In this document: in pieces, positions 2,051-19,315 of the stretch | Layout of the letters: the number at the start of each line of letters is the position of its first letter | Numbering within the stretch: the first letter of the stretch is position 1 | Sequence record: PV340539 | Length of the DNA stretch: 40,804 bases | Direction: 5' to 3' (one strand) | Origin: Escherichia phage mEp234 | Translations under genes and position numbers: made by a program | Notes under the pieces: model-generated | The model's input: only the letters and a program-made list of their open reading frames with translations | Database searches by the model: none | What the model was told of the DNA's origin: nothing

Positions 2051-2218
2051 AGAAATCCCCGCGAGTGCGAGGATTGTTATGTAATATTGGGTTTAATCAT
2101 CTATATGTTTTGTACAGAGAGGGCAAGTATCGTTTCCACCGTACTCGTGACCTGCTCCCCGTTGATTAGTACACCCCGATGTTAGTAATGTCTTCATAAG
2201 CCACATGAGGACATCCCC

Positions 2219-2482
2219 ATGAAGAAGCGTTTTTCCGACGAACAGATCATCAGTATTCTCCGCGAAGCCGAAGCTGGGGTACCCGCCCGTGAACTCTGCC
2301 GCAAGCATGCCATTTCCGATGCCACGTTTTACACCTGGCGTAAGAAGTATGGCGGTATGGAGGTGCCTGAAGTTAAGCGCCTGAAGTCGCTTGAGGAAGA
2401 GAACACCAGACTCAAGAAGCTGCTTGCCGAAGCCATGCTGGATAAAGAGGCGCTTCAGGTGGCTCTTGGGCGAAAGTACTGA
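2219..2482 (+). CDS. IS3-family transposase OrfA (HTH DNA-binding part)
   Basis: 87 aa '[46 protein letters not shown]...' typical IS3/IS407 OrfA with leucine zipper. Confidence 0.9.
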
Positions 2483-2505
2483 CGACAGACCAGAAGCGGG
2501 AAGCC

Positions 2506-3339
2506 GTGATGTTGATGTGTGATGCGACCGGTCTGTCGCAACGTCGTGCCTGCAGGCTTACAGGTTTATCCCTGTCGACCTGCCGCTATGAGGCTCACCG
2601 TCCGGCTGCTGATGCGCATTTATCAGGGCGCATCACTGAGCTGGCACTGGAGCGCAGGCGTTTTGGCTACCGTCGTATTTGGCAGTTGCTGCGCCGTGAA
2701 GGGCTTCATGTTAATCATAAGCGCGTGTACCGGCTTTATCACCTCAGTGGCCTGGGCGTAAAACGCAGAAGACGTCGTAAAGGGCTGGCAACAGAACGTC
2801 TGCCGCTGCTCCGTCCGGCGGCGCCCAATCTGACCTGGTCGATGGATTTCGTCATGGACGCACTTTCCACCGGTCGCAGGATCAAGTGTCTTACCTGCGT
2901 CGATGATTTCACAAAGGAATGCCTGACGGTCACTGTTGCCTTTGGGATTTCAGGCGTTCAGGTCACGCGTATTCTGGACAGCATTGCACTGTTTCGAGGC
3001 TATCCGGCGACGATAAGAACTGACCAGGGGCCGGAGTTCACTTGCCGTGCACTGGATCAATGGGCCTTTGAGCATGGTGTTGAGTTGCGCTTAATCCAGC
3101 CGGGCAAGCCAACGCAGAACGGATTTATTGAGAGCTTTAACGGACGATTTCGCGATGAATGTTTGAATGAGCACTGGTTCAGCGATATCGTTCATGCCAG
3201 GAAAATTATTAATGACTGGCGGCAGGATTATAACGAATGCCGCCCGCACTCCACGCTGAATTATCAGACACCGTCTGAATTTGCAGCGGGCTGGAGAAAG
3301 GGTCATTCTGAGAATGAAGATTCCGACGTTACTAACTGA
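2506..3339 (+). CDS. IS3-family transposase OrfB (DDE catalytic domain); probably expressed as OrfAB fusion by -1 frameshift in 2446-2482
   Basis: 277 aa with '...[54 protein letters not shown]...'; frame -1 relative to orfA, open from 2446. Confidence 0.9.
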
Positions 3340-3368
3340 GTGTTGTATCTAATCGTGGGGGCAGGTCA

Positions 3369-3513
3369 CAACGGCGCTGTAGTTTGTCCATTCTTTCTTT
3401 TTTGTCTGGCGATCGTAATACTGAACGCCAGCACGGATGTTGAATCCGATATTTTCCCCGGCCTGAAACTCTCTTGCGGGCTTGTTTAGTCTTACAGTAA
3501 TCGAATGTGCCAT
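3369..3513 (-). pseudogene. 5' fragment (~48 codons) of a gene translationally coupled to erf, truncated by the IS element; weakly SSB/OB-fold-like
   Basis: ATG overlaps erf stop (TAATG); 'MAHSITVRLNKPAREFQAGENIGFNIRAGVQYYDRQTKKKEWTNYSAVV' then runs into the IS inverted repeat; no continuation beyond the IS. Confidence 0.45.
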
Positions 3514-14472: not shown

Positions 14473-15115
14473 TGGCAGCAAATACCGAAATATTTGGGTA
14501 GTTGGCGATCTGCACGGATGCTACACGAACCTGATGAAAAAACTGGAGACGATAGGATTCGACACCAAAAAAGACCTGCTTATCTCGGTTGGCGATTTGG
14601 TCGATCGCGGTACAGAGAACGTCGAATGCCTGGAATTAATCACATTCCCCTGGTTCAGAGCTGTACGTGGAAACCATGAGCAAATGATGATTGATGGCTT
14701 ATCAGAGCGCGGAAACGTCAATCACTGGATGCTTAATGGCGGTGGCTGGTTCTTTAATCTCGATTACGACAAAGAAATTCTGGCTAAAGCTCTTGCCCAT
14801 AAAGCAGATGAACTTCCGTTAATCATCGAACTGGTGAGCAAAGATAAAAAATATGTCATCTGCCACGCCGATTATCCTTGTGACGAATACGAGTTTGGAA
14901 AGCCAGTTGATCATCAGCAGGTAATCTGGAACCGCGAACGAATCAGCAACTCACAAAACGGGATCGTGAAAGAAATCAAAGGCGCGGACACGTTCATCTT
15001 TGGTCATACGCCAGCAGTGAAACCACTCAAGTTTGCCAACCAAATGTATATCGATACCGGCGCAGTGTTCTGCGGAAACCTAACATTGATTCAGGTACAG
15101 GGAGAAGGCGCATGA
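14450..15115 (+). CDS. ninI: Ser/Thr protein phosphatase (lambda NinI / PPase)
   Basis: 221 aa from '[24 protein letters not shown]...GDLVDRG...GNHE' metallophosphatase motifs. Confidence 0.93.
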
Positions 15116-15735
15116 GACTCGAAAGCGTAGCTAAATTTCATTCGCCAAAAAGCCCGATGATGAGCGACTCACCACGGGCCACGGCTTCTGACTCTCTTTC
15201 CGGTACTGATGTGATGGCTGCTATGGGGATGGCGCAATCACAAGCCGGATTCGGTATGGCTGCATTCTTCGGTAAGCACGAACTCAGCCAGAACGACAAA
15301 CAAAAGGCTATCAACTATCTGATGCAATTTGCACACAAGGTATCGGGGAAATACCGTGGTGTGGCAAAGCTTGAAGGAAATACTAAGGCAAAGGTACTGC
15401 AAGTGCTCGCAACATTCGCTTATGCGGATTATTGCCGTAGTGCCGCGACGCCGGGGGCAAGATGCAGAGATTGCCATGGTACAGGCCGCGCGGTTGATAT
15501 AGCAAAAACAGAGCAGTGGGGGAGAGTTGTTGAGAAAGAGTGCGGAAGATGCAAAGGTGTCGGCTATTCAAGGATGCCAGCAAGCGCCGCATATCGCGCT
15601 GTAACGATGCTAATCCCAAACCTTACTCAACCCACCTGGTCACGCACTGTTAAGCCGCTGTATGACGCTCTGGTGGTGCAATGCCACAAGGAAGAGTCAA
15701 TCGCAGACAATATCTTGAATGCGGTCACACGTTAG
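15112..15735 (+). CDS. Q: Q late-gene antiterminator, lambda type
   Basis: 207 aa '[29 protein letters not shown]...[12 protein letters not shown]...CGRCKGVGY' as in lambda Q. Confidence 0.93.
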
Positions 15736-15777: not shown

Positions 15778-15806
15778 TTGACTTTTTGAATAAAGTTGGG
15801 TAAATT
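15778..15806 (+). promoter_or_regulatory. pR' late promoter (-35 TTGACT, -10 TAAATT) with overlapping qut region
   Basis: 'ttgactttttgaataaagttgggtaaatttgacatcaacgatgg' closely resembles lambda pR'. Confidence 0.8.
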
Positions 15807-15843
15807 TGACATCAACGATGGATAAATTCACTCGTTAAATAAA

Positions 15844-15874
15844 GCCCTGAGTTAATATCTCGGGGTTTTTTGCG
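15844..15874 (+). terminator. tR' intrinsic terminator very close to pR' (short 6S-like transcript)
   Basis: Hairpin 'gccctgag-ttaatat-ctcgggg' (one G.U) + TTTTTTG, ~40-60 nt after the predicted start. Confidence 0.6.
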
Positions 15875-16169: not shown

Positions 16170-16493
16170 ATGAAGATGCCAGAAAAAAATGACCTGTTAG
16201 CCGCCATTCTCGCGGCAAAGGAACAAGGCATCGGGGCAATCCTTGCGTTTGCAATGGCGTACCTTCGCGGCAGATATAATGGCGGTGCGTTTACAAAAAC
16301 AGTAATCGACGCAACGATGTGCGCCATTATCGCCTGGTTCATTCGTGACCTTCTCGGCTTCGCCGGACTAAGTAGCAATCTCGCTTATATAACGAGCGTG
16401 TTTATCGGCTACATCGGTACTGACTCGATTGGTTCGCTTATCAAACGCTTCGCTGCTAAAAAAGCCGGAGTAGAAGATGGTGGGAATCAATAA
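16170..16493 (+). CDS. S: Holin S (class I, dual-start MKM), lambda type
   Basis: 107 aa '[62 protein letters not shown]...'. Confidence 0.95.
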
Positions 16494-16953
16494 TCAACGT
16501 AAGGCGTTCCTCGATATGCTGGCATGGTCAGAAGGAACGGATAACGGACGGCAGAAAACCAGAAATCATGGTTATGACGTCATTGTAGGCGGAGAGCTAT
16601 TTACTGATTACTCCGATCACCCTCGCAAGCTTGTCACGCTAAACCCCAAACTCAAATCAACAGCAGCCGGACGTTATCAGCTTCTTTCACGCTGGTGGGA
16701 TGCTTACCGTAAGCAGCTTGGCCTGAAAGACTTCTCCCCCAAAAGCCAGGACGCAGTGGCATTGCAGCAGATTAAAGAACGTGGCGCTTTACCGATGATT
16801 GATCGCGGTGATATCCGTCAGGCAATCGACCGTTGCAGCAATATCTGGGCTTCACTGCCGGGGGCTGGTTATGGTCAGTTCGAGCATAAGGCTGATAACC
16901 TGATTGCAAAATTCAAAGAAGCTGGCGGAATGGTCAGAGAGATTGAGGTATGA
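16477..16953 (+). CDS. R: Endolysin R (lytic transglycosylase), lambda type
   Basis: 158 aa '...[48 protein letters not shown]...'. Confidence 0.95.
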
Positions 16954-17387
16954 GCAGAGTAACCGCGATTATCTCCGCTCTGGTTATCTGCATCATCGTC
17001 TGCCTGTCATGGGCGGTTAATCATTACCGTGATAACGCCATTACCTACAAAGAGCAGCGCGATAAGGCCACATCCACAATCGCTGACATGCAGAAGCGTC
17101 AACATGATGTAGCAGAACTCGACGCCAGATACACAAAGGAGCTTGCTGATGCTAACGCGACTATCGAAAGTCTCCGTGCTGATGTTTCTGCTGGGCGTAA
17201 GCGCCTGCAAGTCGCCGCCACCTGTGCAAAGTCAACGACCGGAGCCAGCAGCATGGGCGATGGAGAAAGCCCAGGACTTACAGCAGATGCTGAACTCAAT
17301 TATTACCGTCTCCGAAGTGGAATCGACAAGATAACCGCGCAGGTTAACTACCTGCAGGAATACATCAGGACGCAATGCCTGAAATAA
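16950..17387 (+). CDS. Rz: Rz i-spanin
   Basis: 145 aa, N-terminal TM '[34 protein letters not shown]' as in lambda Rz, divergent C-terminal half. Confidence 0.9.
17143..17334 (+). CDS. Rz1: Rz1 o-spanin lipoprotein embedded in +1 frame of Rz
   Basis: Lipobox 'LLGVSAC' and Pro-rich mature region; fully nested in Rz. Confidence 0.8.
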
Positions 17388-17419
17388 TTTTTTTGCAAAT
17401 CACAAAGTCAATTTAATGA

Positions 17420-17442
17420 GCCTCGCGATGCGGGGCTTTTTT
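17420..17442 (+). terminator. Intrinsic terminator after lysis cassette
   Basis: Hairpin 'gcctcgc-gat-gcggggc' + TTTTTT. Confidence 0.5.
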
Positions 17443-17593
17443 ACATCTGCAGTAAACCGCGCATTCTCGTGCGCATATCAACCAAGAGCTTTTCGGGATA
17501 TGAGACAGAGACAGGACGGTGGCTTACATCGTGCCGCTCTTGGGCTGTCCATGTCTGCGAGAACTGGCTCATATCACCAAAAAGGTAAATACG

Positions 17594-18322
17594 ATGTCCA
17601 ATATCATCCCGATTGATTTCGAAGGCCATCCCATGCGTTTTTCTGACGATGGCTGGTTTGACGCGACTGCGGCAGCTGACAAGTTCAACAAGGAGCCGGC
17701 TCAGTGGCTTAGGCTTCCTGAGACTGTCCGTTACATCGAGGCGTTAAAGAGTAGATATGGGAATATCACATATGTAAAAACCAGCCGCGCTCGCAAAGAC
17801 CGTGGCGGCGGAACATGGCTTCACCCAAAACTGGCGGTCAGATTTGCTCGATGGCTTTCTGTAGATTTTGAGATCTGGTGTGATGAGCAAATTGACGCAA
17901 TCATTCAGGGTTCCGTTCATCATATCGACGATGAAAGAATAAAGGCTATTTTCCTTCTGGATAAATCTCAGCCATGGGAAAAGAGGTTTAGCGATCCGTT
18001 TTATTCTGCGATGTTCAAAATGTCAGGGCTGCCCCGCCATCGACCAGGTCGTCGCCCAGCACTATTTGGGATGATCAGTGCCAAGTGGGTATATGGCCCG
18101 GTATTACCACCAGAAGTATATGCAGAGGTTAAAAGACGGCTGGCTGCGGGAGACAAAATCCATCAGCACCTTAAACCTGACGCGCTGACATTGGTTGAGC
18201 GACAGATCATTGCCGTTACCAGCATTGCCAATGGGTGCTCTGATTATCGTGATTTCGAAGCGCGTTGCATGTCGGCATTCCAGGTGAAAGGGCAGATGAA
18301 ATTGCTCTATGCGGCGGCCTGA
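17594..18322 (+). CDS. KilA-N domain protein with P63C-like C-terminal domain (antirepressor-like)
   Basis: 242 aa from 'MSNIIPIDFEGHPMRFSDDGWFDATAAADKFNKEPAQWLRL...'; track ORF begins earlier at 17519. Confidence 0.6.
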   Translation: MSNIIPIDFEGHPMRFSDDGWFDATAAADKFNKEPAQWLRLPETVRYIEALKSRYGNITYVKTSRARKDRGGGTWLHPKLAVRFARWLSVDFEIWCDEQIDAIIQGSVHHIDDERIKAIFLLDKSQPWEKRFSDPFYSAMFKMSGLPRHRPGRRPALFGMISAKWVYGPVLPPEVYAEVKRRLAAGDKIHQHLKPDALTLVERQIIAVTSIANGCSDYRDFEARCMSAFQVKGQMKLLYAAA

Positions 18323-18324
18323 TC

Positions 18325-18582
18325 ATGAGCACCCGAATAATAGAATGCGCCTCCAGAGCGGGGCGCGACTTCTCAGAGTTCATGAAAGGCGAGAAGGGCA
18401 TGATGGAAGCATTGGCCTCGGTGGATGAGTTTGGCGAGCAGCTGCGCCTCAACGGCTGTGTCAATCATCACTTTGTTAGCTACATGATGCGGAACTCGAT
18501 CATGCAGGCATTCATGGACATGGCAAAAGCCGAGAGGAAAGAAGAGCGCCGGCGTAAGCGAGCGGAAGCAAAAGCGAAGTAG
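18325..18582 (+). CDS. Hypothetical small protein (85 aa) with Lys/Arg-rich tail
   Basis: Start 3 nt after KilA-N stop; 'MSTRIIECASRAGRDFSEFMKGEKG...KAERKEERRRKRAEAKAK'. Confidence 0.5.
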   Translation: MSTRIIECASRAGRDFSEFMKGEKGMMEALASVDEFGEQLRLNGCVNHHFVSYMMRNSIMQAFMDMAKAERKEERRRKRAEAKAK

Positions 18583-18973
18583 CCATTACAAAGCCCAACT
18601 ACTGGTGGGCTTGATAATGAAACCGGAATTTATTCTGGGCAACCAGTTACGGCAGTACAGCGAAACAACCCAAGCCAGTAAGTGGGGAAATAACACTGGC
18701 AGCCACTGAAAGATGAACCTCCTGCCTTATGGCAAAAAAGATTCTTTGTGGTGGCGGACTGATGGAAAGACATCGGTTATTGCAGAGACCATTCAATGAG
18801 TGGTCTCGACAATAGCTTATACCCTACACGGGATAACTTAACTGATATCCCTTTTAACGGATAAACGGAGCCAACAATGGCAGAGATTATTCTCATGACT
18901 GAAGAACAGAAATTCCAGTTAGAGATTTACAAACTGGTCATGAACCAGAACGCCGCCGTGCATGGAGACTGGC

Positions 18974-19315
18974 ATGAACAAAGAGCCCCGCGTATATGGC
19001 AGCCGATGGGATAAGGCCCGTCTGCGTTTTCTCCAGCAGCACCCACTGTGTGTGATGTGCGAGCAGCAGGGGCGCATAACACCAGCAACGGTGGTCGACC
19101 ATATCGTGCCCCACAAACTGAAAGATGCGCTTAAGTCAGGTAACCCTCTGGCCATATCGAAAGCACAGCTCCTGTTCTGGAGTAAAGAGAACTGGCAGCC
19201 ACTGTGCAAAGCGCATCATGACTCAACGAAACAGAGAATGGAGAAGAGCGGCGCGGTAATCGGTTGTGATGCCAACGGCTACCCGCTCGATCCTGCGTCT
19301 CACTGGAGCACGTAA
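18974..19315 (+). CDS. HNH endonuclease (packaging-associated, upstream of terminase)
   Basis: '...RWDKARLRFLQQHPLCVMCEQQGRITPATVVDHIVPHK...WQPLCKAHHDSTK' HNH motif; alternative start 18962. Confidence 0.85.
   Translation: MNKEPRVYGSRWDKARLRFLQQHPLCVMCEQQGRITPATVVDHIVPHKLKDALKSGNPLAISKAQLLFWSKENWQPLCKAHHDSTKQRMEKSGAVIGCDANGYPLDPASHWST

Follow-up and report, generated by a model that had tools for sequence, protein, structure and literature searches.

A covarying leader RNA predicted to sequester the Shine-Dalgarno sequence of an exchangeable KilA-N/P63C gene cassette in the late operon of phage mEp234

Introduction

What do two small genes placed between the lysis and the packaging genes of Escherichia phage mEp234 encode, and how is their expression controlled? 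The genes, referred to here as ORF1 and ORF2 (open reading frames of 242 and 85 residues), lie in sequence record PV340539, whose 40,804 nucleotides (nt) are called the window and are numbered 5' to 3' from the first letter. In a preliminary description they had been read as a KilA-N/P63C-like protein and a small Lys/Arg-tailed protein that form a moron pair with a possible regulatory or anti-host role. Both proved to be catalogued hypotheticals, the confirmation of which adds little beyond the correction of a start site. The most informative feature of the locus is the leader RNA in front of ORF1, which that description overlooked: its covarying pairings define a regulated slot in which phages carry interchangeable DNA-binding or nuclease genes.

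The leader RNA and its pairing with the Shine-Dalgarno sequence

The terminator that follows Rz and the start of ORF1 are separated by a structured leader of about 140 nt (17459-17593), in which two long-range arrangements can be drawn. The first, the rod, combines the helices anti-SD:SD (SD, Shine-Dalgarno sequence), ext:ext', x:x' and y:y' with an apical hairpin; the second, P1, is the helix a:a'. In the rod, which is the thermodynamically favoured fold, the SD is paired with the anti-SD. The elements are the following.

17418-17446, + strand: intrinsic terminator after Rz, T-run included (stem GAGCCTCGC/GCGGGGCTT, loop GAT)
17459-17474, + strand: P0 hairpin, GCGCAU-UCUC-GUGCGC, from the minimum free energy (MFE) fold
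17475-17481, + strand: A-rich linker, ATATCAA
17482-17488, + strand: a, 5' strand of P1, CCAAGAG, which pairs with a' (17537-17543) and abuts the anti-SD
17489-17493, + strand: anti-SD, CTTTT, which pairs with AAAAG at 17580-17584
17497-17517, + strand: 5' strand of the rod, ext and x (17497-17508) followed by y (17509-17517), with an invariant GAG (17508-17510) at the x/y junction
17518-17530, + strand: apical hairpin, GGTG-GCTTA-CATC
17537-17543, + strand: a', 3' strand of P1, CTCTTGG, 3 nt before y'
17547-17556, + strand: y' of the rod
17557-17563, + strand: 7-nt bulge, GCGAGAA
17564-17575, + strand: x' and ext' of the rod
17580-17585, + strand: SD region of ORF1, AAAAGG, base-paired in the rod conformer
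17594-18322, + strand: ORF1, ATG start, 242 residues, stop codon TGA at 18320-18322
18325-18582, + strand: ORF2, ATG start, 85 residues

The fold of the window leader has a z score of -3.1 against dinucleotide shuffles, and in 44% of the leaders the rod either is the MFE structure or lies no more than about 1 kcal/mol above it, and in most of the others it is near the MFE. Comparative evidence for the pairings came from three alignments. In a raw MAFFT alignment of 50 non-redundant leaders (A3), 78.1% of the cells of the combined structure were paired, as compared with 69.2% in column shuffles, and 215 cells were changed on both sides of a pair versus 89.7+/-9.3, a count that none of 500 shuffles reached. 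When the 3' partners were slid by 1-3 columns as a control, no more than 52.5% of the cells were paired and no more than 114 were changed on both sides. RNAalifold, run on A3 alone, recovered x:x' and part of y:y', with compensatory changes in 8 of 11 pairs. In alignment A4, in which covariance model R1 was used to fit the leaders to the rod, the paired cells rose to 81.8% (92% in the basal helix) and those changed on both sides to 282, versus 102.7+/-11.5. As a cross-check we used an alignment made with a model that contains only P1 and the apical hairpin (A5, model R2) and in which the rod was therefore unfitted: the rod helices were nonetheless paired in 87%, 99% and 76% of the cells, with changes on both sides in 16 of 20 pairs, and the same held for 6 of the 7 pairs of P1 and for 4 of 4 in the apical hairpin (82% of its cells paired).

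The columns of a and of the anti-SD differ slightly, by a few positions, from one subgroup of leaders to another, and duplexes therefore had to be sought in each sequence separately. With RNAduplex, P1 was present in all 64 distinct leaders, mostly as 6-8 bp and in at least 15 compensatory variants (CCAAGAG/CTCTTGG, CCGAGAG/CTCTCGG, CACAGAA/TTCTGTG, CGTCGAA/TTCGACG, CGCAGAA/TTCTGCG, CATCGAG/CTCGATG and TACCGAA/TTCGGTG among others). The anti-SD:SD helix was likewise found in 64/64, and it covaries (CTTTT/AAAAG, CTTTC/GAAAG, CCTACAG/CTGTAGG, CCTTA/TAAGG, CTTTA/TAAAG); the energy of the basal helix ranged from -5 to -19 kcal/mol, and the spacing from a to the anti-SD was 0-2 nt. This conserved pairing of the SD, maintained by compensatory changes, is the one expected of an SD-sequestering leader. 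A hairpin at the position of P0 occurs in essentially all of 66 leaders, also with compensatory variants (GTGCA/TGCAC, GCGCC/GGCGC, GCTC/GAGC, TGCGT/ACGCA, TTGCC/GGCAA), and some unpaired nucleotides are invariant or nearly so, namely the GAG at the x/y junction, a G in the bulge and the GGC that follows a'.

We regard the leader as a new and widespread RNA motif, an SD-sequestering leader or switch that lies outside Rfam 15 and the literature searched: a 221-nt query had no relevant match to any Rfam 15 family, C4 and isrK included, even at E<=10, and our literature searches returned nothing on this RNA or on HK97 gp73-type genes. The public mEp234, HK97 and HK022 records leave it unannotated. 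The window holds no second copy of the leader, even with search filters off. The order of elements (P1, P2, hairpin, P1', P2') superficially resembles that of hepatitis delta virus-like or other ribozymes, a reading that is unsupported, as signatures of P4, P1.1 and L3 are lacking and none of the Rfam ribozymes matches. As a separate observation, the motif ATCAA recurs between P0 and P1 in many leaders and is one half of the core consensus of integration host factor (IHF), with the TTR half missing; near 17400-17600 there is no match to WATCAANNNNTTR.

Translational control of this general kind is known from other systems. In lambda cIII, the T4 mobE and I-TevI hairpins and the metastable folds of hok, pairing of the SD limits initiation; SD-sequestering switches are used for toxic proteins and homing endonucleases, and alternative or metastable structures set the accessibility of the site. 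The window leader differs from these in sequence and in its architecture, a rod of about 110 nt with an asymmetric bulge and a competing long-range helix. Control at the RNA level also acts on genes of the protein network to which ORF1 belongs (see below), as in P1 c4-icd-ant, P4 CI/seqA and Gifsy-1 isrK; in P1 c4-icd-ant it consists in the occlusion of a ribosome-binding site. Unlike C4-type RNAs, which are processed antisense RNAs, the window leader carries its anti-SD within the same fold. The Bro zones of satellites have been reported to contain C4 and isrK matches (PMC10111431).

The proteins encoded by ORF1 and ORF2

ORF1 and ORF2 are real genes and not chance ORFs, because they have 1133 (E<=1e-5) and 137 homologues, respectively, and AlphaFold2 (AF2) models with predicted local distance difference test (pLDDT) scores of 83.6 and 92.5. 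They were already catalogued: ORF1 is mEp234 gp58 ('KilA-N domain-containing protein') and ORF2 is gp59 ('hypothetical protein'), with counterparts in HK97 (gp73 and the following ORF, HK97p61) and HK022 (p55/p56), and a 2025 record of mEp506 labels ORF1 'KilA-N-P63C'. The public records of mEp234, HK97 and HK022 give no function for either. Region 17390-18900 is 100% identical in DNA to that of mEp234 gp58/gp59 and 96.5-98.3% identical to those of mEp506, HK97, HK446, mEp235, mEpX2 and HK022; mEpX1 is also among the relatives of the ORF1-ORF2 DNA (HK97 gp73 and the next ORF) within that range. As in the window, the two genes of mEp234, HK97 and HK022 follow Rz and precede the homologue of the HNH gene gp74; in HK97, the ORF2 counterpart departs from window ORF2 after residue 54.

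The domain assignment of the preliminary description held, since both domains score above the Pfam gathering cut-offs: KilA-N (PF04383) spans residues 8-105 of ORF1 (E 1.2e-22; 80.2 bits, cut-off 23.8) and P63C (PF10546) residues 117-192 (E 7.7e-11; 42.9 bits, cut-off 26.1). The KilA-N part has the APSES-like alpha/beta DNA-binding fold and P63C is the helical C-terminal domain. The fungal APSES domains (Mbp1, PCG2, Bqt4) are just 14-16% identical to ORF1 and, unlike it, belong to eukaryotic transcription factors without P63C. The full-length KilA-N plus P63C architecture occurs in Enterobacterales, Gilliamella, Alcaligenaceae, Comamonadaceae and Acinetobacter. We therefore place ORF1 as a predicted DNA-binding protein, with a KilA-N/APSES-like domain and a helical P63C, in the 'Bro network' of domain swapping described in PMC10111431. 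Pfam showed no ANT (PF03374)/KilA-C, AntA or P22_AR domain in ORF1 at E<=0.01, KilA-N and P63C being the only matches, and no Phage_pRha (PF09669) match. A nuclease domain (HNH, GIY-YIG, LAGLIDADG and the like) was not found in either protein by Pfam, PDB profile or fold searches. A role in defence or anti-defence was also considered and set aside: for ORF1, PADLOC gave only a 30-residue match of the KilA-N core to PDC-S22 (E 9e-5), for ORF2 it gave noise only, and NCBIfam gave nothing for the pair.

The start of ORF1 deserves a correction in some annotations. An SD (AAAGG) lies 7-8 nt 5' of the ATG, and the conservation of both, together with an in-frame stop 5 codons upstream in Gilliamella, identifies 17594 as the true start. 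The GTG-extended ORF1 annotations of 263 and 267 residues run through the leader (window 17519-17593; locus L008, 1632-2435). It was observed that in mEpX1 and in metagenomic proteins of 263 residues (P0121-P0123) ORF1 begins at that upstream GTG, within the structured leader.

ORF2 begins at 18325 and not at 18326, because the frame from 18326 holds 6 stops. Its ATG lies 2 nt past the ORF1 stop codon, which suggests that it is probably translationally coupled to ORF1. A fusion of both by programmed -1 frameshifting was rejected: the overlap has no X_XXY_YYZ slippery site; the ORF2 frame is open for 60 nt upstream, but that extension mirrors the conserved ORF1 C-terminus; and longer database proteins resemble ORF-calling or deletion variants. 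ORF2 has no Pfam match, and matches phrog_875 over its full length (E 1e-53). Its AF2 model consists of three helices, the last of them long and basic, so that the Lys/Arg-rich tail described earlier (KAERKEERRRKRAEAKAK) is borne out as a C-terminal helix; fold matches were to generic helical bundles. The family conserves C8, GRDFS, C45, H48 and H49, and Cys8, Cys45, His48 and His49 may form a metal site, a candidate suggested by their conservation.

Homologues of ORF2 are few, with only 21 cluster representatives among 1.84 billion proteins, and their neighbourhood is telling. Among the best 80 ORF2-homologue loci in IMG/VR, 76 were scorable, and in all 76 the gene lies directly after a KilA-N gene, of the hkbK type (KilA-N plus ORF11CD3) in 68 and of the P63C type in 8. 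Conversely, most ORF1 homologues lack ORF2. The idea of a gene pair thus stands as to the constant position of ORF2 behind a KilA-N gene and fails as to obligate pairing: we take the two genes to be functionally linked, and ORF2 is tightly coupled to KilA-N proteins, but only as a facultative partner that is not obligatory for ORF1. In two remote homologues (P0251, P0254) the ORF2 domain is N-terminal and fused to T5orf172/MUG113 (GIY-YIG-like), and an Escherichia coli prophage protein of 161 residues (locus L257) has the same combination (BLASTP, 30% identity, E 4e-11). The ORF2 domain is a Bro-network module that had not been named previously.

An exchangeable cassette in late operons

Comparison with related phages showed that the locus varies considerably. 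In HK75, about 940 bp are deleted, from within the KilA-N gene to 18793, with loss of P63C and ORF2; HK542 and HK633 keep just about 75 residues of KilA-N, followed by glycosyltransferase genes; Dewey carries an HNH_3-AP2 endonuclease, hkbK and ORF2; HK620 has hkbK-hkbL; and mEpX1 has an additional gene of the Gp49 family. Elsewhere, the slot is occupied by rha, hkbK, HNH, GIY-YIG-like or glycosyltransferase genes. The position of the cassette varies as well: in Gilliamella prophages the ORF1 homologue follows the lysis genes and precedes HNH-terminase, in a Klebsiella myovirus-like prophage it lies between the tail tube and tape-measure genes, and in Klebsiella siphovirus-like prophages between the tail chaperone and the tape measure, with an 83-residue partner. 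At these other late-operon positions the cassette always has the leader and is always co-oriented with the operon. These results indicate that ORF1 and ORF2, which sit in a 'rha slot' between lysis and packaging, are genuine genes of the accessory kind, with which an HK97-like temperate phage can dispense.

The terminator is the 5' boundary of this exchangeable cassette. A terminator scan called a site at 17418-17438, with a 9-bp stem and a T-run, which agrees with the earlier placement of two co-oriented ORFs behind a post-Rz terminator, and BLAST homology among phages that differ in their upstream context begins there. Of 66 distinct leaders, 50 have a terminator-like hairpin and a T-run no more than 75 nt upstream, and in scattered ORF1 homologues such a hairpin and T-run are followed by a conserved stretch that reaches the SD after about 150-190 nt. 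The scan found no terminator after ORF2, so that the sole terminator of the cassette is at its 5' end, and neither scan nor inspection by eye revealed a convincing promoter between the terminator and P0.

Matches to R1 were found directly upstream of several other genes, namely HK620 hkbK, the HNH_3-AP2 endonuclease of Dewey and locus L047, and a 198-residue HNH protein (L123, L159), as well as at a second, hkbK-like cassette in Pantoea. By BLAST, the HK620-type leader is present in 157 phage records, including HK639, APC_JM3.2 and 73 Stx2a-converting phages, and it is 100% identical in phi80, where it precedes rha; R1 scores the window leader at 102 bits and that of phi80 at 74.8. About one in six complete E. 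coli genomes (953 of 5426) carry the rha-type leader, DH5alpha (phi80 remnant), O111 and UTI89 among them, and the gene behind it is usually annotated as 'Rha family transcriptional regulator' and sometimes as 'GIY-YIG nuclease family protein'. The window-type leader is rare (26/5426).

Two of these systems are close enough to be compared with the window in detail. In phi80 the order is Rz, a terminator with the sequence of that in the window, P0, leader and the ATG of rha; like ORF1, rha thus follows Rz, the same terminator sequence and a leader of the same family, and encodes a Bro-network DNA-binding protein. The proteins differ, since phi80 Rha is a Phage_pRha winged-helix protein (PF09669, E 6e-31) and ORF1 is KilA-N plus P63C, and there is no detectable sequence similarity between them. 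P22 orf201 is grouped with phi80 rha by its Rha phenotype. According to a passage of PMC4936722 that cites Mozola & Friedman 1985, rha is the classic case of a late-operon gene with a product that keeps phages from growing when the host is deficient in IHF; the phi80 record annotates it with 'DNA synthesis inhibition in IHF- hosts'. PMC4936722 also reports that rha is regulated through IHF and terms phi80 Rha an antirepressor. The second system, hkbK-hkbL of HK620 (also in Dewey), shares with the window the leader, a KilA-N protein and a tightly coupled 85-residue hkbL/ORF2, and ORF2 and the DNA downstream are about 97% identical between HK620 and the window. However, hkbK has ORF11CD3 instead of P63C, its KilA-N domain is 22% identical to that of ORF1, and it overlaps ORF2 by 4 nt, whereas ORF1 and ORF2 are separated by 2 nt.

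Cassettes may also occur in tandem, each with its own leader: an HNH gene followed by KilA-N/P63C (locus L123, leaders at 593-710 and 1480-1604), or an hkbK-like gene followed by KilA-N/P63C (L117, 2560-2680 and 3887-4006). This suggests an array-like build-up of leader-gene units.

Some side observations on leaders may be added here. The annotated start of phi80 rha (L176, 2593) is within the leader, and a conserved ATG is found at 2629. Weak second matches to R1 (34-39 bits) were obtained at L176 4107-4211 (phi80), L178 3420-3524 and L233 3624-3726; the one in phi80 is just upstream of a 242-residue N15 gp59-like ORF near cos, which is not KilA-N, and may be a diverged copy of the leader. 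A conserved leader of another kind ('..CTAGGGTAGCTCCCGAAAG..') precedes the KilA-N/P63C homologues of Acinetobacter, Moraxellaceae, Alcaligenaceae and Oceanisphaera, from about -130 to -1 of the ORF1 homologue (L034, L039, L043, L046, L052, L053 and L054), with a covarying closing helix (GCCGAC/GTCGGC, TGCTGGC/GCCAGCA, TGCAGGA/TCCTGCA), and R1 fails to detect it.

Proposed mechanism and alternative explanations

On balance, we lean towards the interpretation that ORF1 and ORF2 encode late-transcribed, translationally throttled, Rha-like DNA-binding accessory proteins. Transcription would take place only within the Q-antiterminated late operon, most likely from pR', and would read through the terminator at 17418-17438, which for its part would exclude non-antiterminated transcripts from the cassette; the many internal terminators annotated in the mEp234 late operon are consistent with read-through under Q. 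The leader would then throttle or gate translation, the rod being the OFF state and formation of P1, which would hold the anti-SD away from the SD, the ON state. By geometric reasoning, P1 and the basal SD-sequestering helix appear mutually exclusive, because a and a' are at opposite ends of the full rod (about 30 bp, by our estimate). P1 and the upper rod could coexist as a pseudoknot with the SD left free, and we estimate the exchange of the basal helix alone for P1 to be roughly energy-neutral. P1 might form transiently on the nascent RNA, in which a and a' emerge ahead of y', x' and the SD, or be stabilised by some factor, and the A-rich single strand after P0 could serve as a ribosome standby site. 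By analogy with phi80 rha, the products are probably DNA-binding proteins of the late phase that do harm when made in excess, and such harm would explain a tight control. A Rha-like role is the best analogy available for ORF1, because both genes occupy the same regulated slot.

Several points weigh against this interpretation. The ON/OFF logic is a deduction from sequence, and the nested conformer with P1 only averages about 12 kcal/mol less stable than the rod. In a Providencia/Xenorhabdus subgroup, the pairing is weaker and involves nucleotides just upstream of the SD, not the SD itself. No recognisable upstream terminator was seen in 16 of the 66 leaders, and a weak or non-sigma-70 promoter is possible on the + strand at 17440-17594, where the scan detected no sigma-70-like one. 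At the protein level, the transfer of the Rha phenotype is by analogy only, because ORF1 lacks the Rha domain, and the folds of P63C and ORF2 gave no informative structural match in PDB profile and fold searches.

It is possible, though in our opinion unlikely, that the leader is a true sensor, riboswitch-like or responsive to a protein, an RNase or temperature, in which a factor stabilises the P1 pseudoknot or cleaves the rod; IHF status, RNase III and temperature would be candidates, as for the lambda cIII or N leader. Two independently covarying pairings that appear mutually exclusive and the invariant or nearly invariant unpaired nucleotides speak for such a device, and the reported regulation of rha through IHF points in the same direction. 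That one leader is common to unrelated downstream proteins also argues for a common external signal over autoregulation; for the same reason, autoregulation by ORF1 itself is unlikely. However, nothing in the analysis points to a particular ligand, protein or processing site, there is no IHF consensus near the leader, and a purely kinetic, co-transcriptional role of P1 explains the same data. In a broader form, which we put forward tentatively and would not bet on, the leader would be a new class of regulatory RNA, a bistable pseudoknot switch that may respond to an effector, an RNase or temperature and that gates the translation of interchangeable selfish or toxic cassettes for DNA-binding proteins and nucleases (Rha, KilA-N-P63C, KilA-N-ORF11CD3, HNH and T5orf172) in the late operons of temperate Enterobacterales and Orbales phages, Stx2 phages and phi80 included. 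If true, this bistable leader would also supply the post-transcriptional layer so far missing from the account of the IHF-dependent phenotype of Rha, which has been known for decades.

The initial proposal, taken to mean a moron pair that the prophage expresses autonomously and in which an antirepressor-like ORF1 would for instance induce this or other prophages, now appears improbable. Antirepressors are among the members of the network to which KilA-N belongs, one homologue in a Klebsiella phage bears the annotation 'antirepressor', phi80 Rha has been called one (PMC4936722), and the locus is accessory and flanked by hairpins. Nevertheless, the scans found no sigma-70-like promoter from the terminator to the ATG, an interval taken up by covarying RNA structure, and no terminator past ORF2, the SD is sequestered in the predicted fold of the leader, and the cassette is always co-oriented inside late operons. 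The term moron is therefore apt as far as accessory and exchangeable DNA is meant, as shown by the HK75 deletion and the replacements, and is not as regards a promoter and a downstream terminator of its own. The antirepressor part found no specific support: with ANT/KilA-C missing, as are AntA and P22_AR (Pfam), and with nothing that ties P63C to repressor binding, the analogy is weak.

We also consider very doubtful that the cassette is a selfish, homing-type element, in which ORF1 and ORF2 promote their own spread in the manner of free-standing homing endonucleases and the leader is mainly a homologous 'linker' for exchange. The terminator-leader-gene unit does occur at unrelated late-operon sites of siphovirus and myovirus prophages, HNH and GIY-YIG/T5orf172 genes share the leader and the slot, tandem cassettes each have their own leader, and the ORF2 domain can be fused to T5orf172; moreover, in Dewey and L047 an HNH gene is inserted between the leader and the KilA-N gene, in front of which a leader fragment remains. 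Yet the Pfam, PDB profile and fold searches revealed neither a nuclease motif nor a nuclease fold in P63C or ORF2, and the compensatory changes reflect selection on RNA pairing and not merely on DNA homology. Finally, a DNA-level element (an operator or a site related to recombination or packaging), as the palindromic, operator-like P0 and the proximity of the terminase module and of cos, some 2 kb downstream, might suggest, is essentially excluded, because complementarity is kept despite sequence change in five helices, with G-U pairs sensible only on the + RNA, and because the pairing includes the SD itself; besides, the region accompanies the gene even into tail operons that are remote from cos.

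The leader provides a concrete and mutable element with which to address how rha-type genes stay silent and why they are harmful in IHF-deficient hosts. It also bears on how phages tolerate potentially toxic accessory genes within essential late operons.

Genome context and other observations

The neighbouring genes confirm the slot between lysis and packaging that had been described, with Rz upstream and HNH, TerS and TerL downstream.

15112-15735: Q
15778-15869: pR'-like promoter, qut-like site and tR' terminator
16170-16493: holin
16477-16953: lysin
16950-17387: Rz (Pfam Phage_lysis, E 1.5e-35)
18591-18612, + strand: hairpin AAGCCCA-N8-TGGGCTT after ORF2, without a T-run, read from the sequence
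18877-19014, + strand: chimeric ORF of 45 residues, with an N-terminal remnant of DUF2560 (HK620 hkbM / P22 Orf80)
18962-19315: HNH endonuclease, homologue of HK97 gp74
between the HNH endonuclease and TerS: ORF of 67 residues
from 19706: TerS
from 20198: TerL

The segment 15778-15869, a region of a short 6S-like transcript, gave a sub-threshold Rfam match to isrJ (28 bits vs 37). The hairpin at 18591-18612 was not called by the terminator scan and is not a canonical terminator. In the 45-residue ORF, 26 of the first 29 residues are identical to hkbM, and the divergence that follows begins at the start of the HK97-type HNH gene (18962), which represents a mosaic joint within a gene, as seen by DNA alignment with HK620, HK97 and HK75.

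The whole window is 100% identical to the published mEp234 genome (NC_019715), permuted at attP so as to present the gene order of the integrated prophage (window position 3 corresponds to mEp234 21098, and 19706 to mEp234 position 1). The sole difference is an IS3-family element of 1222 bp at 2148-3369, with orfA (helix-turn-helix, about 2220-2480) and orfB (rve/rve_3/HTH_21 domains, 2506-3339), which interrupts mEp234 gp28, an HK97 gp40-like gene.

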